Source of the DNA: Candidatus Latescibacterota bacterium | GTDB lineage: Bacteria; Latescibacterota; UBA2968; UBA8231 | Reading direction: 5' to 3' | Length of the DNA stretch: 64,000 nt | Assembly (NCBI GenBank): GCA_965203175.1 | Contig: OZ241867.1 | Location: 1,376,001-1,440,000, forward strand | Part shown: positions 3,918 to 38,890 of the stretch, piece after piece | Layout of the letters: every line of letters starts with the position of its first letter | How positions within the stretch are numbered: position 1 is the first letter of the stretch | The notes under the pieces: generated by a model | What the model was told of the DNA's origin: nothing | Database searches by the model: none | Seen by the model: only the letters and a program-made list of their open reading frames with translations | Program-made: the position numbers and the translations under genes

Positions 3918-3949
3918 TGCCTTTCTGCACCAACCTCAGGAGGTAAACT

Positions 3950-7962: not shown

Positions 7963-7977
7963 GACGCTCCTTATGCG

Positions 7978-19378: not shown

Positions 19379-20208
19379 ATGAAACGAGTGGAGCTATTGC
19401 CCGTTTACGGCAGCGGTCTGTGCGATTTGAGCCGGACGCGGCTGGCGGACTACCTTACTGCTATCGTCGGCGACCGGGAAGTGCCAGAGACCGATGAGGA
19501 GTGGAATGAGCGGCTTTGCGCGCTGGGGTTCATGGTCGAGCGAGAAGACGGCCCGCCCGCCTGTACTATCGCCGGGTTGATCCTGTTTGGCTATCGGCCC
19601 CGTCGCCTGTTGCGCCATGCTGGCATCCGCTGGATGTGCTTTGAGGGGGAGGAGAAAACCTACGATGCCATTGACGATCAAGTGATTGAAGGGCCGCTGG
19701 TCGATCTTTGGCAGGTGCTGTCAGGGGGGCGTGAACTGGTGGAAAAGGGGCTGATTGAACGCCTTGCCGATGCGATGCGGCCGTTCGTATCTGAGGAGGC
19801 GGGCCAAGTGGAAGAGTCCATGCGTCGGGAACGACGCTGGCACTATCCGCTGGAAGCGCTGCGCGAAGGTGTTGTCAATGCGCTGACGCATCGGGACTGG
19901 ACGCGGTACGAGGAAATTGAGGTGGTCCGTTATGCGGACCGGATAGAGATACTCAGCCCTGGTGCACTGCAAAACGCATGACGATCGAAAAAATGATTGC
20001 TGGTCAACGGGTGCCGCGCAATCTGCTCATCTCTGAGACGTTGCGGGACTATAGCTATTCTGATGCTCGCGACATGGGGGTGCGGAACAAGATCATTCCG
20101 TTGATGCGAGCGCATAACGGGGTTGACCCGGAGTTTGAGGCGACGGAGGACTACTTGCGATTGACGCTGCGCCGAGGTTCGTCACCCTGTACCGAAGCTG
20201 AACGGTGA
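19379..20208 (+). pseudogene. Truncated, frameshifted AlbA_2/HATPase_c_4 ('RecG C-terminal-like') protein
   Basis: YPLEALREGVVNALTHRDW, IEILSPGAL; frame break near 19978, then PRNLLI...GVRNKI; no N-terminal AlbA domain. Confidence 0.75.
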
Positions 20209-21126: not shown

Positions 21127-23571
21127 ATGGCTTTGAAAAAGTCCCAACTCTACTCCTCGCTGTGGCAAAGCTGCGACGAGTTACGTGGCGGCATGGACGC
21201 CTCGCAGTACAAGGACTACGTCCTGACGCTGCTGTTTATGAAGTACGTCTCGGACAAATACGCTGACGATCCGTACCCGCTCATTGAAGTTCCACCCGGC
21301 GGCAGCTTCGCGGATATGTCAAACCTCAAGGGCGACAAGGAGATCGGCGACAAGATCAACAAGATCATCGGTCAGCTCATCGAGGCCAATGACCAGCTCA
21401 AGGGCGTCATCGACCAAGCTGACTTCAACGACGAGAGCAAGCTCGGCACAGGCAAGGAGATGCAGGACCGACTCTCGAAGCTGGTCGCTATATTCGAGGG
21501 GCTCGACTTCCGCGCCAACCGGGCCGAGGGCGACGATCTGTTGGGCGATGCCTACGAATACCTGATGCGGCACTTTGCGACCGAGTCAGGGAAGAGCAAG
21601 GGGCAGTTCTATACGCCGGCCGAGGTCTCCCGCATTATGGCACAGGTGGTTGGGATCGGCTCGGGCACCCAACAGGATCAGACTATTTACGATCCGACTT
21701 GTGGCTCTGGCTCGCTCTTGCTCAAGGCTGCGGACGAAGCGCCGCACGGCATTACCGTTTACGGCCAGGAGATGGACAACGCCACCTATGCGCTGGCACG
21801 GATGAACATGATCCTGCATGGCCATGAGACCGCTGAACTTTGGCGCGGCAACACCTTGGCCGCTCCGTACTTCAAGAACCCGGACGACCGCCTTAAGACC
21901 TTTGACTTTGCCGTCGCTAATCCGCCTTTTTCCGCCAAGGCTTGGTCCAGCGGCCTCAATCCAGACCACGACGAGTACGGGCGCTTCGAATACGGCATCC
22001 CTCCGACGAAAAACGGTGACTACGCCTTCCTTTTACATTTAATTGCGTCGCTCAACAGCAAGGGCAAAGGCGCGATTATCCTGCCGCACGGCGTGCTGTT
22101 TCGCGGCAACAAGGAGGCGGACATCCGCAAAAAGCTCATCCGCCAGGGCTTCATCAAGGGCATCATCGGCCTGCCGGCCAATCTGTTCTACGGCACTGGC
22201 ATCCCCGCCTGTATCTTGGTTCTCGATAAAGAGAACGCCCACGCTCGTAGCGGTATCTTCATGATCGACGCGAGCAAGGGCTTTCTCAAGGACGGCAACA
22301 AGAATCGCCTGCGCGCACAGGACATCCACCAAATCGTCGATGTGTTCAACCGGCAGACTGAGTTGTCGCGCTATTCCCGCATGGTGCCGGTGGCTGAGAT
22401 CGCTAGTCCGGCTAACGACTACAATCTGAACATTCCGCGCTACATTGATTCCAGCGAATCGGAAGACCTGCACGACCTCGACGCGCATTTGCACGGCGGC
22501 ATTCCCGACCGCGATCTCGACGAGCTCGGAACCTATTGGGATGTCTTCCCTTCGTTGCGCCAAGCGTTGTTTGTCGGCAACGGACGGGCGGGCTACAGCG
22601 AGGCTCGCGTTGAGACGCCGCAGGTGAAGGCCGCCATTCTCGGGCATGGGGAGTTCAAGTCGTACGAGGCGCGGGTCGCGGTCGTTCTCGACGGTTGGTG
22701 CAAGACGCACGAGCCGGTTCTCAAGGGGCTGGAGATAGACGCCAATCCCAAGGACATCATCCACACTCTGGCGGAGGATCTGCTGGCGAGTTTTGCCGAC
22801 TTGCCGCTGCTTGATCCGTACGACGTGTATCAGCGGCTGATGGACTATTGGGACGAGGTGATGCAGGACGATGTGTATCTCATTACTGCGGACGGTTGGG
22901 AAGAGGCAGTCAAGCCGCGTGGGATCATTGAGGACAAAGAGAAGAAGATCAAGGAGACGCCGGACCTGACTGTCAAACGCAGGAAGTACAAGATGGACCT
23001 GATTCCTCCGGGGCTGATCGTCGCGCGTTATTTCGCTGATGAACAGGCCGCTGTCGAGGCGCTACAGGCCAAGCAGGAGGCCGCAGCCCGCGAACTGGAA
23101 GAGTTCGTCGAAGAGCACACTGGCGAGGAGGGCTTGCTGGAGGATGCGGTCAACGACAAGGACAAAGTCACCAAGGGCGGCGTGACGGAGCGGCTCAAGG
23201 CTATCCGGTACGAGCCGGAGAGCGACGAGGAACGCGATGCCCTCAAGCATTGTAAAAGTCTGATTGAGGGCGAGGCTAAGGCGGCTAAGGCCGTCAAGGA
23301 GGCCCAAGCCCGCTTGGATGAGCAGGTGCTGGCCCGCTACGGCGTGCTCACTGAAGCCGAGATCAAGACGCTGGTGGTTGAGGACAAGTGGTTTGCGAGC
23401 ATCCGGGGTGCTATCGAAGGTGAGGTGCAGCGGTTGACACAGCAGCTCGCCGGGCGGGTGAAGGAGTTAGAAGAGCGCTACGCCCGTCCGCTGCCGGAGT
23501 TGGAGCGGGAGGTGGAGGTGTTTGGTGATAAGGTCGAGGAGCACTTAAAGAGGATGGGGATTTCGCTATGA
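21127..23571 (+). CDS. hsdM: Type I restriction-modification methyltransferase subunit
   Basis: GQFYTP, DPTCGSGSLL, ANPPF (m6A motif IV), LPHGVLFRG, YNLNIPRY. Confidence 0.97.
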   Translation: MALKKSQLYSSLWQSCDELRGGMDASQYKDYVLTLLFMKYVSDKYADDPYPLIEVPPGGSFADMSNLKGDKEIGDKINKIIGQLIEANDQLKGVIDQADFNDESKLGTGKEMQDRLSKLVAIFEGLDFRANRAEGDDLLGDAYEYLMRHFATESGKSKGQFYTPAEVSRIMAQVVGIGSGTQQDQTIYDPTCGSGSLLLKAADEAPHGITVYGQEMDNATYALARMNMILHGHETAELWRGNTLAAPYFKNPDDRLKTFDFAVANPPFSAKAWSSGLNPDHDEYGRFEYGIPPTKNGDYAFLLHLIASLNSKGKGAIILPHGVLFRGNKEADIRKKLIRQGFIKGIIGLPANLFYGTGIPACILVLDKENAHARSGIFMIDASKGFLKDGNKNRLRAQDIHQIVDVFNRQTELSRYSRMVPVAEIASPANDYNLNIPRYIDSSESEDLHDLDAHLHGGIPDRDLDELGTYWDVFPSLRQALFVGNGRAGYSEARVETPQVKAAILGHGEFKSYEARVAVVLDGWCKTHEPVLKGLEIDANPKDIIHTLAEDLLASFADLPLLDPYDVYQRLMDYWDEVMQDDVYLITADGWEEAVKPRGIIEDKEKKIKETPDLTVKRRKYKMDLIPPGLIVARYFADEQAAVEALQAKQEAAARELEEFVEEHTGEEGLLEDAVNDKDKVTKGGVTERLKAIRYEPESDEERDALKHCKSLIEGEAKAAKAVKEAQARLDEQVLARYGVLTEAEIKTLVVEDKWFASIRGAIEGEVQRLTQQLAGRVKELEERYARPLPELEREVEVFGDKVEEHLKRMGISL

Positions 23572-24450: not shown

Positions 24451-24665
24451 TACAAGCGAATAGATTTATCTGATTCTAAAACAAGAAGTTACATCAAACA
24501 GAAGAGTGTTAAGTGGGAATTGGGAAACAGAAAAAATTGAAAGCGGAGGAAGGGTGAACGGCAATTGCGGGAACAGTGGATGAGCATCAAGTCAAAATGG
24601 ACGAGGTAATAAACGATAGTTATATTTTTGCACCAATAAATAATATGAAGGAGGACATCAACATC

Positions 24666-24902
24666 ATGCCAGACCGTTATGTAACGAAGCATCCAGAAGG
24701 GTGGTCAGTGAAAGCACCGGGTGCCGCACGCGCAAGCAGCGTTCATGGGACGCAGCGGGAGGCCGAGGCGGCGGCGAAACAGATCGTGGCTAATCTTGGC
24801 GGCGGTGAGGTTCGTATCCAAGGACGCGATGGCAAGTGGCGTGATTCGGACACGGTCCCGCCGGGTAACGACCCGAATCCGCCACGCGACAAGAAGCACT
24901 AA
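24666..24902 (+). CDS. DUF2188 domain protein
   Basis: GWSVK...ASSVHGTQREA...EVRIQGRDGKWRDSDT..GNDPNPPRD; RBS aaggagg. Confidence 0.85.
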   Translation: MPDRYVTKHPEGWSVKAPGAARASSVHGTQREAEAAAKQIVANLGGGEVRIQGRDGKWRDSDTVPPGNDPNPPRDKKH

Positions 24903-24923
24903 CGGAAGGTTAGGGGTATTTCG

Positions 24924-25874
24924 ATGAGAATATTCATTTCATATTCGCACAAAGACCAAGCAGTACTGGAGCGGCTACATACCCATTTGGCTCCCCTTCA
25001 GTCTGAAGGGCTTATTGATACATGGTATGATCGCCAAATTCTGGCGGGTGGGAGGGTCGACGAGGAGATCGGCAAAGAACTTGAGTCCTGCGATCTCTTC
25101 CTGATGCTTGTCAGTCCTGATTTCCTAGCGTCTGACTATTGCGTCAATCGTGAAATGAGGCGAGCGCTTGAGCGCCATAGGGACGACGCGGCGCATGTTG
25201 TACCAATTATCGTCGAGCCCTGCGATTGGCTTTCTTCGCCACTAAGTGAACTCAAGGTCCTACCACTTGATGGGGAACCTATTAGCGAGTGGCCAAACCC
25301 AAACAACGCCTATCTCGATGTAGTCAGGGAACTTCGGCGTATTCTTGAAACTCGTAAGGCCGCTGTGCCTCCTATGGGACATGCTACGTTCTCCGAGGAG
25401 ACTAATGAAACGCGACCTGTGGCTTCCCGTTATAGGGTACAGCAAGACTTCGATGATATAGATCGTAGTGAGTTCCGAGAGACCGCGTTTGCGACTATCT
25501 GCGATTACTTCCAGCAGCAGATTGCCGAGATCAATACGGACAGCAAATTACGCGGGCGTTTTGTGCCCCGGGGGCCGAGTTCGTTCGGATGCACAATCGT
25601 CAATAGGGCACGTGAGTTGAACCGTGGTACGGCGCACATCACTGTACATCGCGGAGACGGTGCCCCTGGGCTTGGCGACATCTACTACTCGTTCTCGGAA
25701 AATGCCGCAGCCAATACTGCAAGTGGCATGCTCTACATTGAGTCGGACAATTACGAAATGTATCTCAGCAGTATGATGAACTTCGGCAGTGGGCGGGAAC
25801 GGCTCACTCCGGAAGAAGCGGCAGAGTGCTTGTGGGCTGATTTTATCGAGAAGGCAGGAGTTTCTTTGGGCTGA
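24924..25874 (+). CDS. TIR domain protein with an uncharacterised C-terminal domain
   Basis: IFISYSHKD, WYDRQILAG, SPDFLASDYCVNREM (catalytic Glu), VVPIIVEPCDW. Confidence 0.9.
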   Translation: MRIFISYSHKDQAVLERLHTHLAPLQSEGLIDTWYDRQILAGGRVDEEIGKELESCDLFLMLVSPDFLASDYCVNREMRRALERHRDDAAHVVPIIVEPCDWLSSPLSELKVLPLDGEPISEWPNPNNAYLDVVRELRRILETRKAAVPPMGHATFSEETNETRPVASRYRVQQDFDDIDRSEFRETAFATICDYFQQQIAEINTDSKLRGRFVPRGPSSFGCTIVNRARELNRGTAHITVHRGDGAPGLGDIYYSFSENAAANTASGMLYIESDNYEMYLSSMMNFGSGRERLTPEEAAECLWADFIEKAGVSLG

Positions 25875-26103
25875 TTTGATTTGCAGAGGACAATCCGTCG
25901 ATTTCAATTCGGGGGACGTCTTGGCAACACCGCCGGGAAATCACTTTGGGACACCATGCTGGAAATCAGCCACAACGCGCAACGGTGCGGTCTAACTCCG
26001 GAAATTTTGCAGTCCATCCTAGCCGAAGAATGATCCGCTTCATCTTCGATACAAACGTCTAACCATTGGGGCCGCGCTGCTGTCCGAGGGCCGGTGAACG
26101 TGG

Positions 26104-27392
26104 ATGAATAGCGAGCAAGGGACAACGGGCAGCACCCTTGGAGGCGGACGCCGTGTGCCCGTGGAACCTGTTCCCGCCGGCTACAAGCGCACCGAAGTGG
26201 GCGTAATTCCGGAGGATTGGGAGCGTTCGAGCGTACATGCCATTGCCTCATCGACGCGCAACGCGATCGTTGGTGGTCCCTTTGGATCTGACCTCGTGTC
26301 CAAGGACTACGTGGCTCATGGCGTTCCGGTTATTCGTGGCCAGAATATGAGCGGCCAGTGGGTTTCGGGCAGTTTTGTTTTTGTTACGCCAACGAAAGCA
26401 AAATCACTCGAAGCGAATCTAGCGCATCCTGGAGACATTATCTTTACGCAACGAGGAACGCTTGGCCAAGTAAGCCTCGTTCCGGACAAACCCTTCAGCG
26501 CTTACTTGGTCTCCCAGAGCCAGATGAAGCTTTCGGTAAACCGCAAGGTGGCTGATCCGCTCTTCCTCTTCTATTTTTTTACAAGCTACGAACAGCAGAA
26601 ATCGATTCAGGGCAGGACGATTCAGACGGGAGTTCCGCATATTAATCTCGGAATTCTTCGTGAGATGCCCGTTCGACTTCCGCCATTAGCCGAGCAACGC
26701 GTCATCGCCGAGGCGTTGTCGGATGTGGATGGGTTGCTCACGGCGTTAGAGGCGCTGATCGCCAAGAAGCAGGCCGTCAAGCAGGCCGCCATGCGGCAAC
26801 TCCTCTCTGGCAAGACTCGTCTGCCGGGGTTTAGTGAGGCGTGGGAGACGAAGCGGATTGGCGACTTACTCTATTATGAACGACCAGATCGCTACATTGT
26901 GCAATGCACAGAGTACAGCGATTACGGCAATGTTCCAGTATTGACCGCAAACAAGTCGTTTGTTTTGGGCTACACCGACGAAGATTTCGGTATCTGTACT
27001 GATACTCCTGTTATCGTTTTTGACGATTTTACGACCGATTCAAGTATGCAACGTCTCCATTCAAAGTAAAGTCGTCAGCGATCAAGCTTCTCCGCGCCCG
27101 TCAGAATCAAGCACATCTTAGGTACGTTTTTGAACGTATGCAGTTGATTCGCTTCCCGTTGGGCGATCATAAGAGATACTATATATCGGATTATCAAAAC
27201 ATTGAGTTGGCCGTTCCCGGTTTCGGTGAACAACAGGCTCTTTCTTCAGTCCTCTCCGAAATGGACGCCGAGATCGCCACGCTGGAGCGACGCCGGGACA
27301 AGATTCGCGCCGTCAAGCAGGGCATGATGCAGCAGCTTCTCGTCGGTCGGGTGCGGCTGGTCGAACCAGACTTAGATCGTACGAGGAGTTAA
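26104..27392 (+). pseudogene. hsdS: Type I R-M specificity subunit with a frameshift near 27040 (ORFs 26104-27069 and 27138-27392)
   Basis: GYKRTEVGVIPEDW, LPPLAEQRVIAEALSDVD, KQAAMRQLLSGKTRLPGF; adding 1 nt at gattcaag restores FDDFTTDSKYATSPFKVKSSA through to KQGMMQQLL. Confidence 0.88.
27307..27351 (+). repeat. 45-bp hsdS 3' segment duplicated at 31728-31772
   Basis: 40/45 identity by manual comparison. Confidence 0.85.
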
Positions 27393-27468
27393 AGTCAGTC
27401 TCGCGAAAATGAGTCATCTTTACAGATCACACATGATGCTGTAAAAACAGACACTTGGAGGTGTGTTG

Positions 27469-28422
27469 ATGTCCAAGGACCTGAAGAGTCAGCAGGAGCA
27501 GGGTACCACCAGTATTAAGAACCGAGACTTTCCGAGCCTATACCAGAGTGCCGACAAAGCGTCACTTTCAGCACAACGACGTTATCTTTGTTTGCAGAAG
27601 AGCTATATCGGTTGTCTTATTTTGGGGAGCGTTGGTGCTGCCCTTGCGACGATAGTTCCGGTCGTAGCCGTCAAGTGGACTCACATTGTCTTGGCGATAG
27701 TTCTGGTAACTGGCGTCGTTCTCACTTGGGTATCCCGAGTACGTCGAGACGACAAGGTGTGGTTTGGCTGTCGCGCCATTGCTGAGTCCACAAAGACCGC
27801 TACATGGCGATTCATGATGAAGGCTGCACCTTTCAAAGATGACAGCATCGCTAGGCAGTCATTCATTGACCAGCTTCGACTAATACGAGAGGAGAGGCAT
27901 TTCAGTTCACACGATTTGGCGCAAAGCTTGGATGCAAACACTCAGTCTATTAGCGATTTCATGGATAATGTGCGACAGAAGCCCTTGAATAAACAGCGGA
28001 ACCTATATCTTGAGTCGAGACTTCGCGATCAAAAGGCTTGGTATTCAAATAAAGCCAAGTTCAATTCAAAGAAGGAATCTTGTTGGTTCTGGGTGGTTTT
28101 GGCACTACATGTGGTCGCCATTGCTTTTGCAATTATTCAGGCTGGTTCAGGTGGCTTACCGGTAAACATGGTTCCATTTTTGATGACCTGCGCTGCTTCT
28201 GCTATCGCATGGAGCCATATGAAGCGCTACGGCGAGTTAGCTCAGACCTACTCACTCTCTGCACAGGAGCTGAGAGACCAAGAAGCGATTGCCTCGGATA
28301 TAACGGAAGAGGCTGACTTCCTCGCACTTGTGGAGCAAGTCGAGGAGACCATTTCTCGTGAACATACCATGTGGTGTGCGCGCCGGAATGTGATAATCAG
28401 ACCAACCGACAAGGGAAACTAA
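27469..28422 (+). CDS. SLATT-family (DUF4231; SLATT_3 + SLATT_1-like) 4TM membrane effector
   Basis: FPSLYQSADKASLSAQRRY, W..CRAIAESTKTATWRFMM, RLRDQKAWYSNKA, EETISREHTMW; four hydrophobic segments; RBS ggagg. Confidence 0.85.
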   Translation: MSKDLKSQQEQGTTSIKNRDFPSLYQSADKASLSAQRRYLCLQKSYIGCLILGSVGAALATIVPVVAVKWTHIVLAIVLVTGVVLTWVSRVRRDDKVWFGCRAIAESTKTATWRFMMKAAPFKDDSIARQSFIDQLRLIREERHFSSHDLAQSLDANTQSISDFMDNVRQKPLNKQRNLYLESRLRDQKAWYSNKAKFNSKKESCWFWVVLALHVVAIAFAIIQAGSGGLPVNMVPFLMTCAASAIAWSHMKRYGELAQTYSLSAQELRDQEAIASDITEEADFLALVEQVEETISREHTMWCARRNVIIRPTDKGN

Positions 28423-28423
28423 C

Positions 28424-28825
28424 ATGGCTAAAAGGAAGATATTCGTGAGTTATGACTACGACAACGATAGGTATTACAAGAATCTACTCTTGGCATGGGA
28501 TAAGAACCGCGAATTCGATTTCGGCTTTAGTGATCAGTCCGCTGATGTGTCCATCCAGAGCACTAACGTAGTCGCCATCAAACGCGCGATTTCAGCCAAG
28601 ATCAATGCCTCTACTTACTTCCTGTGCCTTGTTGGCGAGAAGACCAGCAAGAGCTATTGGGTTGCATGGGAGATCGACAAGGCTAAGGAATTAAGAAAAA
28701 AGCTTGTTGCTGTGAAGATTTCGAATAGGAATGTGACTCCAAACGGACTCTTGAATGCCGGGGCATCGTGGGCTATGTCGTTCTCATTCGACGCCATCAA
28801 AGACGCCATCGAAGGCGCTTATTAA
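28424..28825 (+). CDS. ThsB-like TIR domain protein (DUF1863/MTH538-like)
   Basis: KIFVSYDYDND, IKRAISAKI, LCLVGEKT..SYWVAWEIDKA (catalytic Glu). Confidence 0.9.
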   Translation: MAKRKIFVSYDYDNDRYYKNLLLAWDKNREFDFGFSDQSADVSIQSTNVVAIKRAISAKINASTYFLCLVGEKTSKSYWVAWEIDKAKELRKKLVAVKISNRNVTPNGLLNAGASWAMSFSFDAIKDAIEGAY

Positions 28826-28862
28826 TGGTGATGAAACTGGAAACGTGACTAAGAAAATAGCC

Positions 28863-29837
28863 ATGGCAATAGATCGAAGCAGGAACCTATACATCGCGCA
28901 GACAGCCCTTCCTATACCATGCTTTTTTCCATCGGTTTCGAGCGTTAAGACAAACCTGATGCCCGTTGATTATGTAGAGCTTCTCGTTGCAGCCGGTCAT
29001 TCGCTCTTTCTGGTATCCGCCTATGACATTGCCCATTGCACCGATGATCAGCGCCCGCGTATGGATGCCGCGCTGACGAAAGGTAAAGAACACGATGCCG
29101 TGATCCTTATGGACAGCGGGAATTACGAAAGCTTTTGGAAAGACGACAAAGACTGGCAACCTGACAGGTTCCATGAAATTGCTGGTTCTAGCCATCATCA
29201 TCTCTGTTTCTGCTACGATAACCAGCAGCCGCCCAGCACCTCAGAGTCAATTGCCGAAGACGTAGTGGCCAGTGTTATCCGAGATCAGAAACACGCCCTC
29301 GAAACCGTAGCTCCGATAGTCCATGGGGACACAGCATTGCTATCAGATGCGGCCCGTAGAACGGCGGAGCAACTTTACCCCCTACTCTTGGCCGTCCCGG
29401 AACGTGAGCTTGGAGAAGGCATTATCGAGCGAACCCGAACAGTAAGGAAAATCCGAGAGGCGCTTGATACGCTAGAGGTATATTGCCCTCTTCATCTGCT
29501 CGGCACGGGGAATCCGCTTTCGATTATTGCTTACGCCTTAGCTGGAGCCGATAGCTTCGATGGTCTGGAATGGTGTCAGACCGTTGTCGACCACCAAACA
29601 GGTAGGCTGTTACATTTTCAACAATGGGACTTGATCCGCGATCAGACAGAATGGGGTCGATGCCCTGTACTACCGTATGTCCAATCGGTCTTGATGCACA
29701 ATCTAGATTTCTATCGCGAGTTTATGAAAAAGTTACACGAAGCAATACATCTCGAAGACACTGAAACTTTCATTCAACAGTACGTAACTAACGAACAGGC
29801 AGATCTTCTACTCCGGGCCAGCGAAGGAAGTGAGTAA
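28863..29837 (+). CDS. tRNA-guanine transglycosylase (TGT/DpdA)-fold protein, Cap10-like
   Basis: ILMDSGNYE (cf. TGT DSGG), PIVHG, LHLLGTGNP, GADSFDG, HNL; start may be GTG 28845. Confidence 0.8.
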   Translation: MAIDRSRNLYIAQTALPIPCFFPSVSSVKTNLMPVDYVELLVAAGHSLFLVSAYDIAHCTDDQRPRMDAALTKGKEHDAVILMDSGNYESFWKDDKDWQPDRFHEIAGSSHHHLCFCYDNQQPPSTSESIAEDVVASVIRDQKHALETVAPIVHGDTALLSDAARRTAEQLYPLLLAVPERELGEGIIERTRTVRKIREALDTLEVYCPLHLLGTGNPLSIIAYALAGADSFDGLEWCQTVVDHQTGRLLHFQQWDLIRDQTEWGRCPVLPYVQSVLMHNLDFYREFMKKLHEAIHLEDTETFIQQYVTNEQADLLLRASEGSE

Positions 29838-30534
29838 CGTGACAATGATTCGCTTTTCTCTTTCAGCTATCGAACATGCGATCCGGGATGTGTACAGCGT
29901 ACTTGACGAGTGTACTTCAGTCCCATGGAAGGAAAGTAGCGAAGACGATCTATGGCGAGAGCTTGTATTTTGTATCCTAGGTAGCCGAGTGAGGTTTGAA
30001 ACTGTCCACGCAGCGGTTGAAAGAATGGACGGTATGTGTTTGCTTTCTCGTCCACGACGAAACACACAGTTCGATCAATATGAAGAGGACACGATGACGG
30101 CCCTTTCTATGGGCTATCCATTCTATCGCGTCAGGGCTAATCAGATTCGCCGGGCAGCAGAATACCTATACAACTACTCACGGGGGTCAATTGGGGAGTT
30201 ACTGAATAGCGCTAGTGATGCTCACAGCGCGCGACGCCTTCTGACGGCTGAGGTAGTGGGTTTGGGACCCAAGCAAGCAAGCCTATTCCTCCGGAACATC
30301 GGTTATGCAAAGTCCATCGCGGTCTTAGACGTACATATTTTGACATATTTGAGTTGGATCGGTCTTGCTGAATCTTCGCTCAAATCGGTTCCGACATTAA
30401 GCAAGTACGAAGCACTGGAAGAATCTTTTATCCAACATGCCTATTCATTAGGATTCTCACCCGATCAATTCGATCTTGCGGTGTGGATTGTAATGAAAGT
30501 GGCAAAGGAGGAATCAAACGCATGGGGATCGTGA
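29830..30534 (+). CDS. HhH N-glycosylase/DNA lyase (archaeal OGG-like), Cap11-like
   Basis: ELVFCILG, YPFYRVRA, GLGPKQASLFLRNIGY (HhH Lys), AVLDVHIL (Asp), YEALE, DLAVW. Confidence 0.85.
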   Translation: MSNVTMIRFSLSAIEHAIRDVYSVLDECTSVPWKESSEDDLWRELVFCILGSRVRFETVHAAVERMDGMCLLSRPRRNTQFDQYEEDTMTALSMGYPFYRVRANQIRRAAEYLYNYSRGSIGELLNSASDAHSARRLLTAEVVGLGPKQASLFLRNIGYAKSIAVLDVHILTYLSWIGLAESSLKSVPTLSKYEALEESFIQHAYSLGFSPDQFDLAVWIVMKVAKEESNAWGS

Positions 30535-31118
30535 CTTTGGTATCTGGAGGATTCGATTCAACTCTTATGAGTCTTATGGCTCATGAGGAAGGGATCGCAC
30601 TATTCCCTCTCTTTATCGATTACGGGCAACTCGGAGTAAACAAGGAATGGTCAGCGTGTCAGCGACTTCACAAACAATTCGGTTTGCCACCGGTGACCTA
30701 TATGGATTTGTCTGGTTTTGGAAAAACAATCCCGAGCGGACTTACAGATAGCAGTTTACGCATCAACGAAGATGCCTTCTTGCCAGGTCGAAATCTTCTT
30801 TTTGTGCTAGCAGGAGCGGCTCATGCCTGCCAGACTCAAGCTAGTAGCGTCGCGCTTGGTCTACTCAATCCCGCCGACCACCTTTTTCCAGATCAGACCA
30901 AGGGGTTTGTAGAAGAGTGCGAAAGGATTATCGAGATGGCAATGGGCCGGAGGATTTCTGTTCTTATCCCACTGATCGAGTTCTCGAAGAGAGATATTAT
31001 GGTGATGGCTCGTGATCGGGGGATAAAGCATACCTATTCATGTCATGCAGGTGGGGACGAACCTTGCGGAGTGTGCATAGCATGCATTGAAATTATTAAT
31101 GCAAAGGAAAGGAGGTAG
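30522..31118 (+). CDS. queC: QueC-family 7-cyano-7-deazaguanine synthase-like PP-loop enzyme, Cap9-like
   Basis: SGGFDST, DYGQ, PGRNLLF, FPD, TYSC-x7-CGVCIAC Zn site; RBS ggagg; probably a defence-associated paralogue rather than the housekeeping enzyme. Confidence 0.88.
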   Translation: MGIVTLVSGGFDSTLMSLMAHEEGIALFPLFIDYGQLGVNKEWSACQRLHKQFGLPPVTYMDLSGFGKTIPSGLTDSSLRINEDAFLPGRNLLFVLAGAAHACQTQASSVALGLLNPADHLFPDQTKGFVEECERIIEMAMGRRISVLIPLIEFSKRDIMVMARDRGIKHTYSCHAGGDEPCGVCIACIEIINAKERR

Positions 31119-31120
31119 CC

Positions 31121-31618
31121 ATGGGTGGCGGACGCAGTAGTCGCGGTTTAACCCCAGACGAATTCAGGAGTGCTGAACAACGTGCCAAAAAATCTCTGAA
31201 GGAAGGCGATGGCAAGCACAATGTCTTTATCAGCTTCTCCTCGGATGATCTCGATGAAGTTAACCTGTTACGTGGTCAGGCTAAGAACGAAAACAGCAAC
31301 ATTGAGTTCAACGACCGGTCACTGAAAAAGCCGTTCGACAGTAAGAAAGCCGACTATATAAAACGAGGCATTCGGGACCGTATTCGTCAATCCTCCGTTA
31401 CTGTCGTGTATGTATCGGACAAAACCGCCGATAGTAAATGGGTGGACTGGGAAATACGAGAGAGTCTTGTCATGGGGAAAGGTGTCGTCGCCATGCACAA
31501 GGGCGACACCCCACCCAGACGTCTCCCAAAGGCTATCACCGACAACAATATTCCGGTTGTACCGTGGAACCAAGAACAGTTGGCAAAAGCCATTGAGACT
31601 CAGTTCGAGAACCGATGA
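31121..31618 (+). CDS. ThsB-like TIR domain protein with a Gly-rich N-terminal extension
   Basis: MGGGRSSRG..., NVFISFS, YIKRGIRDRIRQSSVTVVYVSDKT..SKWVDWEIRES; RBS aggagg, 2 bp after the queC stop. Confidence 0.9.
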   Translation: MGGGRSSRGLTPDEFRSAEQRAKKSLKEGDGKHNVFISFSSDDLDEVNLLRGQAKNENSNIEFNDRSLKKPFDSKKADYIKRGIRDRIRQSSVTVVYVSDKTADSKWVDWEIRESLVMGKGVVAMHKGDTPPRRLPKAITDNNIPVVPWNQEQLAKAIETQFENR

Positions 31619-31820: not shown

Positions 31821-33416
31821 ATGAGCGAGAGCTAGAACATCGAATGGAAAGAGACGTGGCGGGACGAATACCTAAAATGGGTCTGCGGCTTCGCCAATGC
31901 TCAGGGCGGCGTACTGGAAATCGGCAAGAATGACCGGGGTGAGGTGGTCGGAGTGAAGGACGTTCTCCGACTGCTCGAAGAAATTCCCAATAAGGCCCAG
32001 GCACTGCTCGGCGTCGTGGTGGACGTGAACCTGAAGTCGGAAGACGGCGGGGAATATCTGGAAATCGCGGTTGATCCCTACCCCAATCCAATCAGCTACA
32101 AAGGCGAATTCTACTATCGCAGCGGCAGCACCAAGCAGGTGCTCAGAGGGGCGGCACTTAGCCGCTTCCTGTTGCAGAAATACGGCCGAACGTGGGACGA
32201 TGTGCCCCTGCCGGGCGTCGGCCTCAAGGACTTGGACGGTCGCGTCTTTGACGGGTTTCGTCAGCGGGGTGCTGACAGCGAACGCTTACCGCAGGACATA
32301 TTGGACGAATCCGACGAAGGGGTAATCGAGAGGCTTCAGTTGCGAGAGACGGGTTTCCTAAAGCGTGCCGCGGTCCTGCTCTTTCATCCAGCGCCGGACC
32401 GGTTCGTGATGGAAGCCTATGTGAAGATCGGCTATTTCCGTGGTTCGGAGTTGCTGTATCAGGACGTTATTGAAGGCGACTTGTTCACTCAGGTCGATCG
32501 GACGATGGACTTGCTGTACACGAAATACACGAAGGCATTGATTTCCTACGACGGCGTTTATCGCGTGGAGACCTTTCCCGTGCCGCGTGAAGCCATGCGC
32601 GAAGCGGTGATCAACGCCATCATTCACCGGGATTACTCCAGTCCTACCACAATTCAGATTCGCGTGTACGACGACCAGATCGCGATCTGGAATGCGGTGC
32701 AGTTGCCGTCTGAATGGGCCGCCGATCAACTTGCTGGAGAACTTTCGTCAAAGCCGTATAACCCGCGAATCGCCTACGCCTTCTTCCGCGCCGGAATGAT
32801 CGAAGCCTGGGGACGGGGCATCCGGCGGATTGCGGAAATGTGCAAGGAGGCTGGCAACCCCGTACCAGAGTGGAAGCTGCAATCTAGCGGCGACGGTCTG
32901 TGGTTGAGGTTCCCGTTCTCTGCTGCGTACCAAGCAGCCGATTCCTCTACTGGCAGTGCTACTACCCAAGAAACTACCCAAGAGGCTACCCAAGAAACTA
33001 CCCAAGAGGCTACCCAAGAAACTACCCAAGAACGCATTTTGGCCTTACTCAAAGCTGAGCCTGAGCTAACGCAGCGTATGCTCGCCGAACGCATTGGTCT
33101 TACGCCGGATGGGGTCAAATACCACTTGGCTAAGCTGCGAACTGCTGGAGCCATCCGACATGTTGGACCAACCAAGGCGGGTCGATGGGAAGTGCTGACT
33201 ACCCAAGAAACCACCCAAGAGGCTACCCAAGAAACTACCCAAGAACGCATTTTGGCCTTACTCAAAGCTGAGCCTGAGCTAACGCAGCGTATGCTCGCCG
33301 AACGCATTGGTCTTACGCCGGATGGGGTCAAATACCACTTGGCTAAGCTGCGAACTGCTGGAGCCATCCGACATGTTGGACCAACCAAGGCGGGTCGATG
33401 GGAAGTGCTCAAGTGA
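31821..33416 (+). pseudogene. Schlafen/AlbA_2 + HATPase_c_4 + duplicated HTH protein, amber stop at codon 5
   Basis: MSES*NIEWKETWRDEYLKWVCGFANAQGG is in frame with ORF 31944-33416; REAVINAIIHRDY; IEAWGRG. Confidence 0.8.
32961..33409 (+). repeat. 12-bp tandem repeats (TTQE/ATQE; 6 + 4 units) and a 213-bp tandem duplication of the HTH
   Basis: Units at 32961-33032 and 33198-33245; HTH copies start at 33033 and 33246. Confidence 0.92.
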
Positions 33417-33444: not shown

Positions 33445-36400
33445 ATGAGCGCCGTCGGCCAGCGGGAAATCCAAACCCAGCGGCGAGTGGTGGCGTTTTT
33501 CCAAGACGTGCTCGACTACAAGTACCTCGGTCATTGGCAGGACCGCCCCGGCAACCGCAACGTCGAGAGAGAGCATATCACCGACTGGCTCAAGCGCCAG
33601 GGGCACAGCGACAAAATCATCGACAGGGTGCTGTTCGAGCTGAACAGGGCAGCAGGGCTCGGCGGCAGCAAGACGCTCTACGACGCCAACCGCGAGGTCT
33701 ATGGCCTGCTCCGCTACGGCGTGAAAGTCCGGCCGGATGTGGGCGAACAGAACGTCACGGTCTGGTTGATCGACTGGGAGAATCCCGGCAACAACGACTT
33801 CGCCATCGCCGAGGAGGTGACGGTCCGCGGCGAGAATACCAAGCGGCCCGACCTCGTGCTCTACGTCAACGGCATTGCCTTGGGGGTGCTGGAACTGAAG
33901 CGCTCGACGGTGTCAGTGACTGAGGGCATTCGCCAGAATCTCGACAGCCAAAAGAAGGAATTCATCGAGCCGTTCTTCGCCACCGTACAACTCGTGATGG
34001 CGGGCAACGATACTGAGGGCCTGCGCTACGGCGTGATCGAGACGGCGGAGAAGTACTGGCTGCACTGGAAGGAAGCCGAGGTCCATCCGAGTGCTGACGA
34101 CAATCCGCTGCTCCGGGAGTTGAGCCAACTCTGCGGCAAGGAGCGGCTGATAGAAATCATCCACGATTTCATCGTCTTCGATGCGGGCGTCAAGAAGATC
34201 TGCCGCCACAACCAGTACTTCGGCGTAAAGGCGGCGCAGGCTCGCGTGAAGCGCCGCGAGGGCGGCATCATCTGGCACACCCAAGGCAGCGGCAAGAGCC
34301 TGACCATGGTCTGGCTGGCCAAGTGGATCCGCGAGCACGTCACAGACGCTCGGGTCCTACTCATCACCGACCGCACCGAACTGGACGAGCAAATCGAAAA
34401 GGTCTTCAAGGGCGTCAGCGAGGACATCCATCGCACGAGGAGCGGTGCCGACTTGGTGCGCGTGCTCAATGCCAGCGACGAATGGCTGATCGCTTCGCTG
34501 ATCCACAAGTTCGGCGCGGCAGAGGAAGGCGACGTCGATACGTTCGTCGAGGACATTCGCAGCCACCTGCCCAAAGACTTCCACGCCAAGGGCGATATTT
34601 TCGTCTTCGTAGATGAGTGCCACCGCACCCAGTCCGGTAAGCTCCACGAGGCAATGAAGGAATTGTTGCCGGGGGCCATGATGATCGGCTTCACCGGGAC
34701 GCCGTTGCTCAAGAGCGACAAGCAACAGAGTATCGAAACCTTCGGGCCGTACATCCACGCCTACAAGTACGACGAGGCGGTGAAAGACGGCGTGGTACTG
34801 GACTTGCGCTACGAGGCGCGCGACATCGACCAGAACATCACCTCGCAGACCAAAATCGATCAGTGGTTCGACATCAAGACTCGTGGGCTGACCGATGTGG
34901 CCAAGGCCCAGCTCAAGCAGCGCTGGGGCACGATGCGAAGAGTCCTGAGTGCGCGGGATCGGCTGGAGAAAATCGTCGCCGACATCCTATTCGACATGGA
35001 AACGCGCGACCGCCTCAAGAGCGGTCGTGGCAACGCCATACTCGTCTCCGGCAGTATCCGCTCAGCGTGCCGCTTCTTCGACATGCTCCAGCAGACTGAA
35101 CTGGCGGGCAAATGCGCCATCGTCACCTCGTACAGGCCAACCTTAGCGGACATCAAGGGCGAGGAGACCGGCGAGGGATACACCGAAAAACTACTCCGGC
35201 ACGCCACCTACCGTAAAATGCTGGCGGCGCACTTCAACGAGCCGGAAGACTCGGCGATGCACAAGGTCGAACGCTTTGAGCAGGAAGTGAAAAAGCGCTT
35301 CATCGACGAGCCAGGACAGATGAAGCTCCTGATCGTGGTGGATAAGCTGCTGACCGGCTTTGACGCGCCATCGGCGACCTATCTCTACATCGACAAGCAG
35401 ATGCAGGACCACGGCCTATTCCAAGCGATCTGCCGGGTCAATCGCCTCGACGGCGAAGACAAGGAATACGGCTACATCATCGACTACAAAGACCTGTTCC
35501 GGTCGCTGGAGCAATCCATTAAGGACTACACGGGCGAGGCATTCGACGGGTACGACAAGGCCGATGTGGAGGGTCTGCTGAAGGACCGGCTTCAGCAAGG
35601 TCGAGAGCGGCTGGAGGAGACACGCGAGGCGACCAAGGCGCTGTGCGAGCCGGTCGAGCCGCCGCACGACACTGCGGCCTATTTGCACTACTTCTGCACG
35701 GCCAGTAACGCTCGCCAGCTCAAAAACAATGAGCCGAAGCGCGTGGCGCTCTACAAGCAAGTCGCTGCGTTCCTACGCGCCTACGCCAACTTGGCCAACG
35801 AGATGTGTGAGGCCGGCTATTCCGATGCCGAAGCGCAGGAGATCAAAGCCGAAGTGGATCACTACGAGAAGGTGCGCCAGGAGATCAAGCTGGCCAGCGG
35901 CGACTACATCGACCTGAAGATGTACGAGCCAGCCATGCGGCACCTGCTTGATACGTACATCCGCGCCGAAGAGAGCGAGCAGCTATCAGGATTCGACGAT
36001 TTGACGCTCGTGCAACTGATTGTCGAGCGCGGGGAAGAGGCGGTCGAGGAACTGCCCGCAGGCATTCGCAAGAACCGCGAGGCGGTGGCTGAGACGATTG
36101 AAAACAACGTCCGGCGGCTCATTATCGACGAGACGGGAGTCAACCCCAGGTACTACGAGAAAATGTCGGAGCTGCTGGAAGCCCTGATCCGGCAACGCAA
36201 GCAAGAGGCGATTGACTACAAGGCGTATCTGGCGCGGATCGTCGATCTGACCAGAAAGACCAGTCGGCCAGAAACCCAAGCGTCCTATCCCGCCAGCATC
36301 AACAGCCCGGCATTGAGGGCGCTGTTCGACAACTTGGTGGTGCTAGTTCCGACAGCCCGAGAGCCACTCGACACTGAGCCGCCCGTTGATGTCAGGGAGG

Positions 36401-36570
36401 CGAAAGCGCTCACCCTAGATTCCGCCATCCGTCGGGTAAAGAAGGCGGACTGGCGGGGAAACAGGCTCAAGGAGCGCGAGGTCCGCAACGCCATCCACGC
36501 AGAACTCGGCGGCAACGAGAGCCTCGTAAACGCGATATTTGAGATCGTGAAGGCACAGAGTGAGTACTAA
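33445..36570 (+). CDS. hsdR: Type I restriction endonuclease subunit R
   Basis: RPDLVLYVNG...ELK nuclease; HTQGSGKS, DECHR, GFTGTP, LLTGFDAP, QAICRVNR. Confidence 0.97.
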   Translation: MSAVGQREIQTQRRVVAFFQDVLDYKYLGHWQDRPGNRNVEREHITDWLKRQGHSDKIIDRVLFELNRAAGLGGSKTLYDANREVYGLLRYGVKVRPDVGEQNVTVWLIDWENPGNNDFAIAEEVTVRGENTKRPDLVLYVNGIALGVLELKRSTVSVTEGIRQNLDSQKKEFIEPFFATVQLVMAGNDTEGLRYGVIETAEKYWLHWKEAEVHPSADDNPLLRELSQLCGKERLIEIIHDFIVFDAGVKKICRHNQYFGVKAAQARVKRREGGIIWHTQGSGKSLTMVWLAKWIREHVTDARVLLITDRTELDEQIEKVFKGVSEDIHRTRSGADLVRVLNASDEWLIASLIHKFGAAEEGDVDTFVEDIRSHLPKDFHAKGDIFVFVDECHRTQSGKLHEAMKELLPGAMMIGFTGTPLLKSDKQQSIETFGPYIHAYKYDEAVKDGVVLDLRYEARDIDQNITSQTKIDQWFDIKTRGLTDVAKAQLKQRWGTMRRVLSARDRLEKIVADILFDMETRDRLKSGRGNAILVSGSIRSACRFFDMLQQTELAGKCAIVTSYRPTLADIKGEETGEGYTEKLLRHATYRKMLAAHFNEPEDSAMHKVERFEQEVKKRFIDEPGQMKLLIVVDKLLTGFDAPSATYLYIDKQMQDHGLFQAICRVNRLDGEDKEYGYIIDYKDLFRSLEQSIKDYTGEAFDGYDKADVEGLLKDRLQQGRERLEETREATKALCEPVEPPHDTAAYLHYFCTASNARQLKNNEPKRVALYKQVAAFLRAYANLANEMCEAGYSDAEAQEIKAEVDHYEKVRQEIKLASGDYIDLKMYEPAMRHLLDTYIRAEESEQLSGFDDLTLVQLIVERGEEAVEELPAGIRKNREAVAETIENNVRRLIIDETGVNPRYYEKMSELLEALIRQRKQEAIDYKAYLARIVDLTRKTSRPETQASYPASINSPALRALFDNLVVLVPTAREPLDTEPPVDVREAKALTLDSAIRRVKKADWRGNRLKEREVRNAIHAELGGNESLVNAIFEIVKAQSEY

Positions 36571-37294
36571 GGCTAGAGGCCACCGCATCGACATTCGCGG
36601 AATCCCGGTAGAGGTCGTCCACAAGAGCATCAAGAACCTCCACATAGGCGTCTATCCGCCGAGTGGTCGGGTACGGGTGGCCGCCCCGCTGTGGCTCGAC
36701 GATGACGCCGTGCGTTTGGCCGTCATTTCGCGCTTGGGATGGATTCACCGAAAGCGAGCCGAATTTGCCCAACAGGATCGCCAATCCCAGCGCGAGTTCG
36801 TGACCGGCGAGAGCCATTACTTCCGGGGCCGGCGCTATCGACTCGACGTGATTGAGCACGATGGTCCACCGGCAGTTCGTCTGCTCAGTAATACGAAGAT
36901 GGCGTTGCGCGTCCGTCCGGGCACCGACCGGGACGCAAAGGAGGCGGTACTGGAGCGATGGTATCGCCGTCAACTCCGCGACCAGTTGCCAGAGCTGTGC
37001 GTCAAATGGGAGCAGAAGGTTGGAGTGACGGTCGATGAGGTGCGGATCAAGAAAATGAAGACCCTCTGGGGCTCCTGTAATATCGAAGCCAAGCGCATCT
37101 GGCTAAACCTCGAACTGGCCAAGAAGCCGACTTCGTGCTTGGAGTTAGTCCTCGTCCACGAAATGGTCCACTTGATCGAGCGCCACCACAACGAGCGTTT
37201 TCGCAAGCTGATGGACAGGTTCATGCCGCAATGGCGCGTTCATCGGGACGAACTGAATCAGCAGCCGCTCGCACACGAGGATTGGGCGTACTGA
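36560..37294 (+). CDS. M48/YgjP-like (DUF45) zinc metallopeptidase accompanying hsdR
   Basis: MKTLWGSC, HEMVHL, HHNERF. Confidence 0.92.
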   Translation: MSTKARGHRIDIRGIPVEVVHKSIKNLHIGVYPPSGRVRVAAPLWLDDDAVRLAVISRLGWIHRKRAEFAQQDRQSQREFVTGESHYFRGRRYRLDVIEHDGPPAVRLLSNTKMALRVRPGTDRDAKEAVLERWYRRQLRDQLPELCVKWEQKVGVTVDEVRIKKMKTLWGSCNIEAKRIWLNLELAKKPTSCLELVLVHEMVHLIERHHNERFRKLMDRFMPQWRVHRDELNQQPLAHEDWAY

Positions 37295-37315
37295 AGCGTC
37301 TGCGGCAAAGGCTGG

Positions 37316-38890
37316 TCAATCGTCGCGGCGCAAGCGCTCGCGCTGCATCCATTCTTGCATGACGTGCTCGGAGCGGTTCAACAAGCTCAAGTAACCACCC
37401 TGTACCTCACTGCGAACCTTCCCAGACTTCGGCGGTTTGTTGGGCACTGCGTTGTAGCGCCCCCTCGCTTGAGTCACCGTCCGGCTCTTGATGTCCAGTG
37501 CGACTGTCAGCACGTGCTCCCGTTCCTCGGCTCCGTCTTGCAGCGCGCCAATCGACCAGATTGCGGTGTTGCCGTCGGCGCACTGGTCTGAATACGAGAC
37601 CACGCAGTGGTGCATTGCCCGGCCTTCAGCGGCCAGCTCCCAACTCGACAACAGCTCCTGCACTGTCCACCGTACCTTGCCCAGTTCGTCCGTCTCGTCC
37701 TCCAACTCCCACGGCCGGATTCCACACGGCTGCCAAGATTGAAAATTGACGTATTCCTCGCGGCTCAAGTGACCGTGCCAAGCCTCGACTTGGCGCAGGA
37801 GCTTGGTGGCGCTGCGGCCCTTCATGGTGAAATTGGGCTGCGGCGGAGGCGCTTCCTCTAAGCCGCCGACCTCCTGCACAATGCGGCGCGGGGCGAATTT
37901 CATGTTGTGGACATAATCGACAAGCGGCCCCACCCAAGTCGGGTCCAGCATCGCGTTATTGACTAGGAAAAGCACCACTGTACTCCAGAACTCGTCGTTT
38001 TCAAAATTGCGCCCTAGGCGGGTCTTGAGGGTCGCCTGCGCCAGAGGCCCATTGCCGCCCATGCCGAGGACCTGCGCCCAGCGCATGCTCTTTTCGACGC
38101 TGCCTAGTTGCGGCGAGCGCTGAAAGAGATGGGCCATGCGCCGCGTCAGTTTGACAGGCGCATCCAAGTCGCGGATGCTACCGCCAGAGGCCATGTGGAT
38201 AAACCACTCCTGCTGCCGCAACCCCTGCTCTTCAACGCCCCCGAACCAAGCCGAAACCATGGCATTGGGCACGGGGTAACGCGCCAACAAATAGCACGCC
38301 AGCGAGAAAACTTGGTCGCTGCGCCGGGGATGGCCGCCCTTGGGGACGACGCAGCGCCACTCCTCTAGGGGGCGAATCCAGTGGCGGTGGTGACGGGCCA
38401 AGGCCAGAAGACAGTGGGTTAGGTGTCGGTAAGGCCCCGATTTATAGATGCTCTTGGCCGTTATCACATTCATGAATTCATCGACGTGGAAAATCAGGCG
38501 TTGGAACGCCTTGTGTGCCTCCGCGTCTTGCCCGAGCCATTCTACGACAAAGCCCTTCCAGGGGAGCTCGCCAGCGGCGAGTTGCGCTAGGGTCTGCTGG
38601 CGTTTCTCCGTCAGCGGGCGCTTAGGCACTAGTGCCTCGGCCAAGTGGTGCTCCAGCCGGTTAGTGAACTGCTCCTGATTTAGGCCGTCGTCCATGCCGC
38701 TGAGCCGACACCAGTGCTGGTAGGATCTGAGCGATTCAAAGCCCACCTTGGCCAACTCCTCCCAAGTCGGGACGACCGTTGTATCGGCTGCGGTTTGCGT
38801 CAATCCTGTCAACTGTCTCACTCCCCTATTATTACAACTTGACAAAGACGGCCACCAAGCCGCTACAATGTCAAGTAGAGCCCCATTCAT
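37316..38890 (-). CDS. PcfJ domain-containing protein
   Basis: LLARYPVP, VEAWH, ELAAEGRAMHHCVVSY, QARGRYN; start uncertain, possibly near 38770. Confidence 0.8.
   Translation of the reverse strand: MNGALLDIVAAWWPSLSSCNNRGVRQLTGLTQTAADTTVVPTWEELAKVGFESLRSYQHWCRLSGMDDGLNQEQFTNRLEHHLAEALVPKRPLTEKRQQTLAQLAAGELPWKGFVVEWLGQDAEAHKAFQRLIFHVDEFMNVITAKSIYKSGPYRHLTHCLLALARHHRHWIRPLEEWRCVVPKGGHPRRSDQVFSLACYLLARYPVPNAMVSAWFGGVEEQGLRQQEWFIHMASGGSIRDLDAPVKLTRRMAHLFQRSPQLGSVEKSMRWAQVLGMGGNGPLAQATLKTRLGRNFENDEFWSTVVLFLVNNAMLDPTWVGPLVDYVHNMKFAPRRIVQEVGGLEEAPPPQPNFTMKGRSATKLLRQVEAWHGHLSREEYVNFQSWQPCGIRPWELEDETDELGKVRWTVQELLSSWELAAEGRAMHHCVVSYSDQCADGNTAIWSIGALQDGAEEREHVLTVALDIKSRTVTQARGRYNAVPNKPPKSGKVRSEVQGGYLSLLNRSEHVMQEWMQRERLRRDD

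Follow-up and report, generated by a model that had tools for sequence, protein, structure and literature searches.

The locus raises the question of what kind of anti-phage system results when Cap9, Cap10 and Cap11 homologues, a module of type IV CBASS (cyclic oligonucleotide-based anti-phage signalling system), stand beside TIR proteins. Six open reading frames (ORFs), all co-oriented on the + strand, occupy positions 27469-31618 of the window (the whole 64,000-nucleotide stretch of a Candidatus Latescibacterota genome analyzed here) and encode in order a protein with two SLATT domains, TIR1, Cap10 (transfer RNA-guanine transglycosylase (TGT)-like), Cap11 (OGG-like), Cap9 (QueC-like) and TIR2. 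A preliminary description, made from the letters alone, had read them as a candidate new hybrid in which TIR proteins replace the CD-NTase of CBASS and 7-deazaguanine chemistry gates TIR signalling to a SLATT effector. The locus is a real, well-conserved, horizontally acquired operon, with a role in defense predicted from sequence; systems of this kind have already been noted in the available text of a preprint (10.64898/2025.12.03.692087), and the key new point here is a glycine-rich tail on TIR2. ORFs of the window were searched with Pfam, PADLOC and NCBIfam profiles, and the following features were identified (E-values in brackets).

27469..28422, + strand: SLATT gene, predicted effector (Pfam SLATT_3 8.7e-32, SLATT_1 6.2e-32; NCBIfam SLATT_3 1e-37, SLATT_1 5.9e-31)
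28424..28825, + strand: TIR1 gene (ThsB_TIR 1.2e-19; PADLOC ThsB 4.3e-17)
28863..29837, + strand: Cap10 gene (Pfam TGT 3.6e-10; PADLOC TGT model PDLC00913 8.1e-25)
29830..30534, + strand: Cap11 gene (Pfam Ogg-HhH 2.4e-27; NCBIfam N-glycosylase/DNA lyase 3.8e-29, under the curated cut-off)
30522..31118, + strand: Cap9 gene (Pfam QueC 1.4e-33; PADLOC QueC PDLC00911 9.1e-28)
31121..31618, + strand: TIR2 gene (ThsB_TIR 8.9e-25)
31121..31150, + strand: codons of the TIR2 N-terminal tail MGGGRSSRGL (match to M(G/S)G(G/S)GG of type IV CBASS CD-NTases)

Junctions were computed with the starts favored by homologue lengths and ribosome-binding sites and are, from 5' to 3', a 1-nt gap, a 37-nt gap, an 8-nt overlap, a 13-nt overlap and a 2-nt gap. 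The SLATT ORF may start at 27463 or 27469, and GGAGG lies 7 nt upstream of the ATG at 27469. For Cap10, a 360-aa start (28755) was rejected for 28863 because the majority of the 120 homologues listed are 324 aa long; for Cap9, a 211-aa start (30483) was rejected for 30522 on account of the ribosome-binding site ahead of the latter. GC content is 0.486 in 27469-31618 versus 0.585 in the window without 24576-31618, so that the preliminary account of six co-oriented, AT-richer genes held over exactly this span. Scans for promoters and terminators returned fewer sites than in shuffled sequence and none at the operon borders. The catalytic residues that were checked are intact in all operon genes. 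PADLOC gave partial matches (Cap9, Cap10, ThsB) and no complete system, as had been anticipated.

The TIR2 tail and the Cap9, Cap10 and Cap11 homologues

Deazaguanylation, a conjugation of a nucleobase to a protein, was described in 2025 and has one proven client, the cyclase of type IV CBASS. In that system Cap9 joins N-terminal 7-amido-7-deazaguanine (NDG) to Gly2 of the CD-NTase, and M(G/S)G(G/S)GG starts every type IV CD-NTase (Wassarman et al., 10.1101/2025.04.06.647259). At the window locus an extension of this type is present on TIR2, not on a cyclase: TIR2 is a ThsB-type TIR of 165 aa in which a predicted helix lies between the glycine-rich N-terminal tail MGGGRSSRGL and the TIR domain. 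An AlphaFold 2 (AF2) model of TIR2 (mean predicted local distance difference test score (pLDDT) 67.5) shows disorder at residues 1-14, a helix at 12-27 and a TIR fold.

A one-genome-per-species scan yielded 19 loci with a Cap10 of 57-83% identity, of which 17 were assessable. The synteny counts exclude L010, a 2.7-kb contig ending within Cap9, and L018, in which Cap10 is frameshifted with nothing after it; the short TIR2 ORF of L008 (130 aa) was scored as present. TIR2 homologues start with a glycine run, (M)GG[GSI]G[GSE]GRGL or similar (e.g. MGGGGGGRGL, MGGSGSGRGL), in 16 of the 17 loci, the exception being L009 (MGNKS). An MGG start is also found in 105 of the 120 closest TIR2 homologue clusters (best 120 of 1,495), the other 15 having mostly MGS or MGV or alternative start calls, and a tail of the form M(M)GGSSTGG is kept in a clade whose Cap10 is 38% identical. 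The case for a TIR having replaced the cyclase as deazaguanylation client rests most strongly on this point: the TIR beside Cap9 has the tail by which CBASS substrates of Cap9 are defined. The same feature bears out the preliminary placing of a TIR where the CD-NTase would stand beside the Cap9/Cap10/Cap11 module. TIR2 is predicted to be both the signal-making enzyme and a deazaguanylation substrate with its NDG site at Gly2, the residue to which Cap9 would conjugate a 7-deazaguanine.

Both TIRs keep the catalytic Glu, as had been stated: E111 of TIR2 (WVDWEI) is invariant across the aligned loci, and E83 of TIR1 (WVAWEI) is invariant among the intact copies. Their treatment as equivalents was not upheld. 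The two are 33% identical and only TIR2 has the tail, TIR1 being a minimal ThsB-type TIR of 133 aa that starts (MAKRK) directly at the TIR domain. Nor is the locus a fixed six-gene unit, since TIR1 is optional and often decayed: among 18 judgeable loci it is intact in 7, carries in-frame stops in 2, has an ACG start in 1, is a 3' remnant in 1 and is absent from 7. The decayed copies are as follows.

L002 6563-6964: TIR1 with in-frame stop(s)
L006 6572-6961: TIR1 with in-frame stop(s) and the catalytic Glu changed to Lys
L018 6558-6962: TIR1 with ACG at the start codon position
L001 6850-6963: TIR1, 3' remnant only

With TIR1 missing, remnant or broken in 11 of 18 loci, the core of the system was taken to be five genes, not six, and TIR1 is predicted to be a dispensable accessory ThsB without a tail, serving as a second sensor or as a partner of TIR2.

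The 198-aa form of Cap9 has a Cap9 structure as its top match in the PDB (9nto_B, 1.7e-12), ahead of QueC structures. Its SGGFDS aligns to SGGMDS of 9nto_B, SGGxDS is kept in 18 sequences, and a GRN motif (ambiguous in its aligned position), LFPDQ and four C-terminal Cys are conserved. For the 324-aa form of Cap10 the sole phmmer match in the PDB is Cap10 9ntn_A (1.4e-7), and 9ntn is likewise the top fold match of its AF2 model (pLDDT 92; E 9.2e-14, template modeling (TM) score 0.69), ahead of tRNA-guanine transglycosylases. The characterized Cap10 binds the NDG tail via D73, S74, D122 and K154 and retains a D248/H226 catalytic pair (10.1101/2025.04.06.647259). Residues D84, S85, H211 and D233 of the window protein align to D73, S74, H226 and D248 of Rhizobiales Cap10 and are invariant in 51 homologues; a CxCxxC zinc motif was looked for in the Cap10 sequence and is absent. 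Cap11 is a homologue of OGG-like HhH-GPD glycosylase/lyases in which the GLGPKQA motif (K148) and D167 are invariant in 18 sequences. Two more full-length QueC matches were found in the window genome (C1:3193150-3193764, 3.5e-60; C1:833959-834570, 1.6e-57), giving three QueC-family genes in total, together with a single QueD/PTPS match about 3 Mb from the operon. The two further QueC copies and the QueD/PTPS match make a supply of deazaguanine precursor plausible.

The SLATT protein (about 317 aa) is a double-domain SLATT_3 + SLATT_1 protein with hydrophobic segments at residues 47-94 and 205-232. It is the predicted effector, and its domains resemble those of ThsH from type VII Thoeris. All 17 assessable loci have a SLATT gene, which encodes the double form (about 320 aa) in some and a single-domain DUF4231/SLATT protein of about 145 aa in others.

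Conservation, acquisition and the restriction-modification context

The order SLATT-(TIR1)-Cap10-Cap11-Cap9-TIR2 recurs in 17 of the 19 loci with no conserved CD-NTase. SLATT, Cap10, Cap9 and TIR2 are each present in 17/17 assessable loci and Cap11 in 16/17, so that TIR, effector, cap9, cap10 and cap11 stand in one operon, all five families in conserved order, in 16 of 17. The hosts include Latescibacterota, Binatia, Nitrospirales, Acidobacteria, Planctomycetota, Methylomirabilota, Hydrogenedentales and Proteobacteria, and the operon family shows 57-92% identity over more than 10 phyla; the gene arrangement is far beyond chance. A metagenomic protein set contained 1,495 TIR2-like and 2,056 Cap10-like clusters, numbers drawn from a different database than the 49 type IV CBASS operons of Wassarman et al. 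and hence not comparable with these.

The preliminary statement that there is no CD-NTase was confirmed. None of the six operon ORFs gave a CD-NTase match (Pfam, PADLOC), and Pfam SMODS (PF18144) has 0 matches in the whole 6.58-Mb window genome (93% complete). Clustering of all flanking ORFs in the 19 loci returned no CD-NTase-like family recurring near the operon, and of 5 host genomes tested, 3 have no SMODS and 2 have it only at a distance of at least 350 kb. Of the ThsA-type domains (SIR2, SLOG or macro) that the preliminary description had not seen, the search covered SIR2, and the three SIR2_2 matches of the window genome are all over 900 kb distant from the window. Among relatives, 0 of 60 genomes searched (30 of the same genus) contain a Cap10 homologue at E<=1e-20, which together with the low GC content points to horizontal acquisition of the operon.

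A distant variant, with a Cap10 of 38-40% identity, is carried by a conjugative element (L020) and by plasmids of Rhizobium and Agrobacterium. Its gene order is a PfkB kinase gene, a TIR_2-Cap10 fusion, Cap11, Cap9 and a TIR with the M(M)GGSSTGG tail, and on the opposite strand a SLATT/DUF4231 gene, ThsB and a TPR-S/TRAF-binding protein. The PfkB-family kinase may belong to the system, being present in both records below. The TIR_2-Cap10 fusion of L020 was considered as a direct Rosetta-stone link for TIR1 and rejected, as BLASTP aligned its TIR_2 domain with neither TIR1 nor the 316-aa TIR that lies upstream of the operon.

L020 4320-11458: distant variant with PfkB kinase
L028 (Rhizobium sophoriradicis plasmid) 1084-8746: distant variant with PfkB kinase

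The operon lies inside a type I restriction-modification (R-M) locus, with flanks in line with the preliminary description: hsdS upstream and a HATPase_c_4/winged-helix protein and hsdR downstream.

21127-23571: hsdM, upstream of the operon
26104-27069 and 27138-27392: hsdS, upstream, as a 321-aa ORF (stop at 27067-27069) and an 84-aa C-terminal fragment in another frame
31944-33416: HATPase_c_4/winged-helix protein, 490 aa, between the operon and hsdR
33445-36570: hsdR, downstream

The split of hsdS is due to a frameshift in the specificity subunit or else to an error in the assembly. Type I R-M genes were the only other family to recur in the flanks when ORFs of the 19 loci were clustered; an hsdS-like gene occurs within 7 kb in 7 of these loci and in 12 it does not. 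HsdM is 68-86% identical to that of the window at the amino-acid level in L001, L003 and L009, and HsdR is 77-82% identical in L003, L012 and L019, in genomes labeled as different phyla. L001 is colinear with the window in five aligned blocks of 75-82% DNA identity and, apart from the gaps between these, lacks TIR1. Matching flanks across phyla suggest that the operon is transferred together with the R-M locus in which it is embedded, apparently as one component of a composite R-M island. The family is also an example of a defense operon that passes from phylum to phylum within a single type I R-M locus.

Further genes were observed around these. Between hsdM and hsdS (24576-25874, 2.6 kb upstream of the operon) lie a DUF2188 gene (108 aa, Pfam 1.9e-18) and, 21 nt 3' of it, a third TIR of 316 aa (TIR_2 2.7e-19; PADLOC ThsB model PDLC00420 6.5e-67), a pair absent from the preliminary description. 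A 72%-identical homologue of this TIR occupies the same position in L001, and none of the fetched loci yielded the DUF2188 gene. DUF2188 is named as a predicted Thoeris effector in the available text of 10.64898/2025.12.03.692087, on the strength of which the pair may be a second Thoeris-like system. A 76-aa ORF upstream of the R-M locus (19978-20208) matches the end of the HATPase_c_4 domain (1.6e-6) and may be a truncated paralogue of the 490-aa protein. At 36560-38890 a YgjP-like metallopeptidase gene (3.2e-62) overlaps the end of hsdR and is followed on the opposite strand by a PcfJ-like protein; these genes hint at the border of a mobile element.

Proposed mechanism and alternative readings

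The operon is probably a Thoeris-type abortive-infection system in which a signal-making TIR2 is controlled by type IV-CBASS-like Cap9, Cap10 and Cap11, and we infer its biochemical steps as follows. TIR2 would lose its initiator Met, as proteins with a small second residue generally do, and Gly2 would be exposed. Cap9, judging by homology and the conserved tail, would activate 7-carboxy-7-deazaguanine with ATP and link it to the Gly2 amine, giving NDG-TIR2. On the pattern of the Cap10-CdnD structure, Cap10 would bind the NDG tail and keep TIR2 inactive or poised for transfer to a target; Cap11, whose Lys and Asp are intact, may speculatively undo such a transfer. Upon infection TIR2 would turn NAD+ into a signal of the cyclic ADP-ribose (cADPR) type, the validated type VII TIR+SLATT pair using canonical cADPR, and the signal would cause the four-helix double-SLATT protein to assemble in the membrane, with cell death or arrest before the phage is completed. 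The preliminary proposal that 7-deazaguanine chemistry gates TIR signalling to SLATT is largely upheld and now has a specific basis in the TIR2 tail, with steps that stay conditional, but does not hold for both TIRs alike.

Several observations weigh against this assignment. Window Cap10 is far from the characterized protein: the phmmer alignment covers just 65 residues, and the fold match has 20-21% identity at the TM score given above. A profile built from 51 Cap10 homologues gave no longer alignment to 9ntn in the PDB, and because of this failure to extend the alignment the equivalents of D122 and K154 are unplaced; the invariant D119 in CFCYDN would be a guess at a counterpart. In the TIR2 model the tail and the first helix are of low confidence, and the window tail (GGG then RSS) is poorer in Gly than the family consensus GGGGGG. 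The split in the adjoining hsdS means that parts of the island may be decaying, and a literature search for experiments on TIR-linked Cap9/Cap10/Cap11 operons found none. Support for the pairing from the predicted complex of Cap10 with TIR2 is weak. Its median score was 0.45 (runs 0.45, 0.76, 0.45; best of 3 controls 0.00), with at least 50% of contacts shared between runs and a partner pLDDT of at least 68. When the score was calibrated, the mark was reached by 58 of 80 solved complexes and by 2 of 110 mismatched pairs; among those at a score of 0.60 or less were only 7 of the 80 solved complexes but both mismatches. These counts are rough here as own alignments were used. A solved complex of similar kind is Cap10-CdnD, with a cyclase in place of the TIR.

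It appears improbable that two adjacent systems are present, SLATT and TIR1 forming a two-gene type VII Thoeris and Cap10-Cap11-Cap9-TIR2 a separate system with its effector elsewhere. The 1-nt gap between SLATT and TIR1 and the validation of TIR+SLATT alone as type VII Thoeris would fit such a division, as would the SLATT+ThsB+TPR-S set that runs opposite in strand to the Cap genes in L020 and L028; however, SLATT occurs with TIR2 in 17 of 17 assessable loci. It does so in the 7 loci without TIR1, where it abuts Cap10 (L009, L013, L014, L016, L017) or is set off by a spacer of about 140 nt (L012, L019), and in 6 of these 7 TIR2 is the sole TIR beside the operon, L014 having another upstream. 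The 4 loci with a remnant or damaged TIR1 keep SLATT intact, and 3 of them keep TIR2 intact. No less improbable is a system in which the TIRs deplete NAD+ as effectors and make no signal, SLATT being independent or a membrane anchor. Many bacterial TIR proteins are NADases, and no cyclic product can be read from the sequence itself, but ThsB-type models match the two TIRs, a SLATT partner stands in every assessable locus, and in type VII Thoeris, according to the available preprint text, SLATT acting with ThsB TIRs responds to canonical cADPR.

Cap10, Cap11 and Cap9 could also be a 7-deazaguanine module for nucleic-acid modification (Dpd-like or tRNA-directed) that serves the type I R-M system, with TIR and SLATT as passengers. 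This would suit the position inside an R-M locus, the matching R-M flanks in other phyla, the hsdS-like gene that 7 of 19 loci have within 7 kb and the transglycosylase Asp/His pair retained by Cap10. It is very improbable in view of the 12 loci that lack such a gene within 7 kb, the six ORFs without a match to QueD, QueE, FolE or other Dpd-type families, and a Cap10 without CxCxxC that is closest in both sequence and structure to the protein-binding Cap10; it also leaves the TIR2 tail unexplained. A type IV CBASS that degenerated by loss of its CD-NTase would account for the Cap9, Cap10 and Cap11 homologues, and SLATT is a CBASS effector too, but the lack of any recurrent CD-NTase-like family in the 19 loci, the absence of SMODS from the window genome, and intact motifs with 57-92% identity across phyla, which argue for selection on the CD-NTase-free form, leave it almost no credibility.

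A bolder form of the proposed TIR2 control would make TIR enzymes, in place of CD-NTases, a major natural client of deazaguanylation under a control logic unlike that of CBASS, with Cap10 employing its intact transglycosylase Asp/His pair during infection for grafting the NDG-tailed TIR2 onto a nucleic-acid or ribosyl target, and thereby clustering TIRs, and Cap11 cutting the graft to reset the system; this form we consider unlikely. TIR domains require self-association for activity, and the recurrent extra TIR beside Cap10, together with the TIR_2-Cap10 fusion on Rhizobium plasmids, hints at Cap10 as a platform that gathers TIR domains. The idea of TIRs as the main client was confined to this form because the metagenomic counts and the CBASS operons stem from different databases.

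Should control of TIR2 by deazaguanylation prove true, a second, unrelated client with the same Gly2 tail would make Cap9/Cap10/Cap11 a portable priming module, in parallel with Cap2/Cap3, which also occur with TIRs. The compact, large and highly conserved family is a good model for the target of Cap10 and the role of Cap11, a protein nearly always present here yet dispensable in the CBASS studied.

Comparison with known systems

Dpd-type 7-deazaguanine DNA modification clusters a TGT-like DpdA with DpdB/DpdC and genes of preQ0 synthesis; the window operon has QueC-, TGT- and OGG-like genes with no QueD, QueE or FolE among the six ORFs. QatABCD likewise uses a QueC-family protein (QatC) in phage defense, but in the Pfam search the window operon showed no homologue of QatB, of the ATPase QatA or of the TatD nuclease QatD, no ORF of it matching an ATPase or TatD family, and it has TGT-like, OGG-like and TIR genes instead. 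A survey of the QueC family (PMC13082051) makes no mention of TIR, SLATT, Thoeris or OGG.

With type IV CBASS the operon shares the SxGxDS motif of Cap9, the D/S readers, Asp/His pair and missing zinc site of Cap10, a glycine-rich N-terminus from Gly2 on the signalling enzyme, and location in a defense island. It has a TIR where CBASS has a CD-NTase, and the lack of the latter excludes it from that type; its Cap10 and the solved CBASS protein share only about 20% identity. Cap11 is present in 16 of 17 loci of the window family, versus about one third of type IV CBASS operons, where it is dispensable for defense (10.1101/2025.04.06.647259).

The operon belongs with Thoeris in having ThsB-type TIRs with the catalytic Glu and SLATT in one operon. 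TIR+SLATT was validated as type VII Thoeris (ThsB + ThsH), with canonical cADPR as the signal, in the preprint 10.64898/2025.12.03.692087, of which part of the text was available. As in that type, a ThsB-type TIR with the catalytic Glu adjoins a SLATT membrane protein, and the window operon differs by three extra accessory genes, a tailed TIR and the double SLATT_3+SLATT_1 form. The same text reports Thoeris operons with cap9, cap10 and cap11 as a bioinformatic remark without experiments, giving AlphaFold 3 (AF3) interface predicted TM scores (ipTM) of 0.79 for TIR-Cap10 and 0.62 for TIR-Cap9 and proposing a mechanism analogous to type IV CBASS, and the preliminary suggestion of a new system therefore does not hold. 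The glycine-rich TIR tail, the optional second TIR, the near-universal Cap11 and the type I R-M context are unmentioned in the text available. Among known systems these operons are the match in which a TIR, an effector, cap9, cap10 and cap11 are joined in one operon, a composition they have in common with the window.

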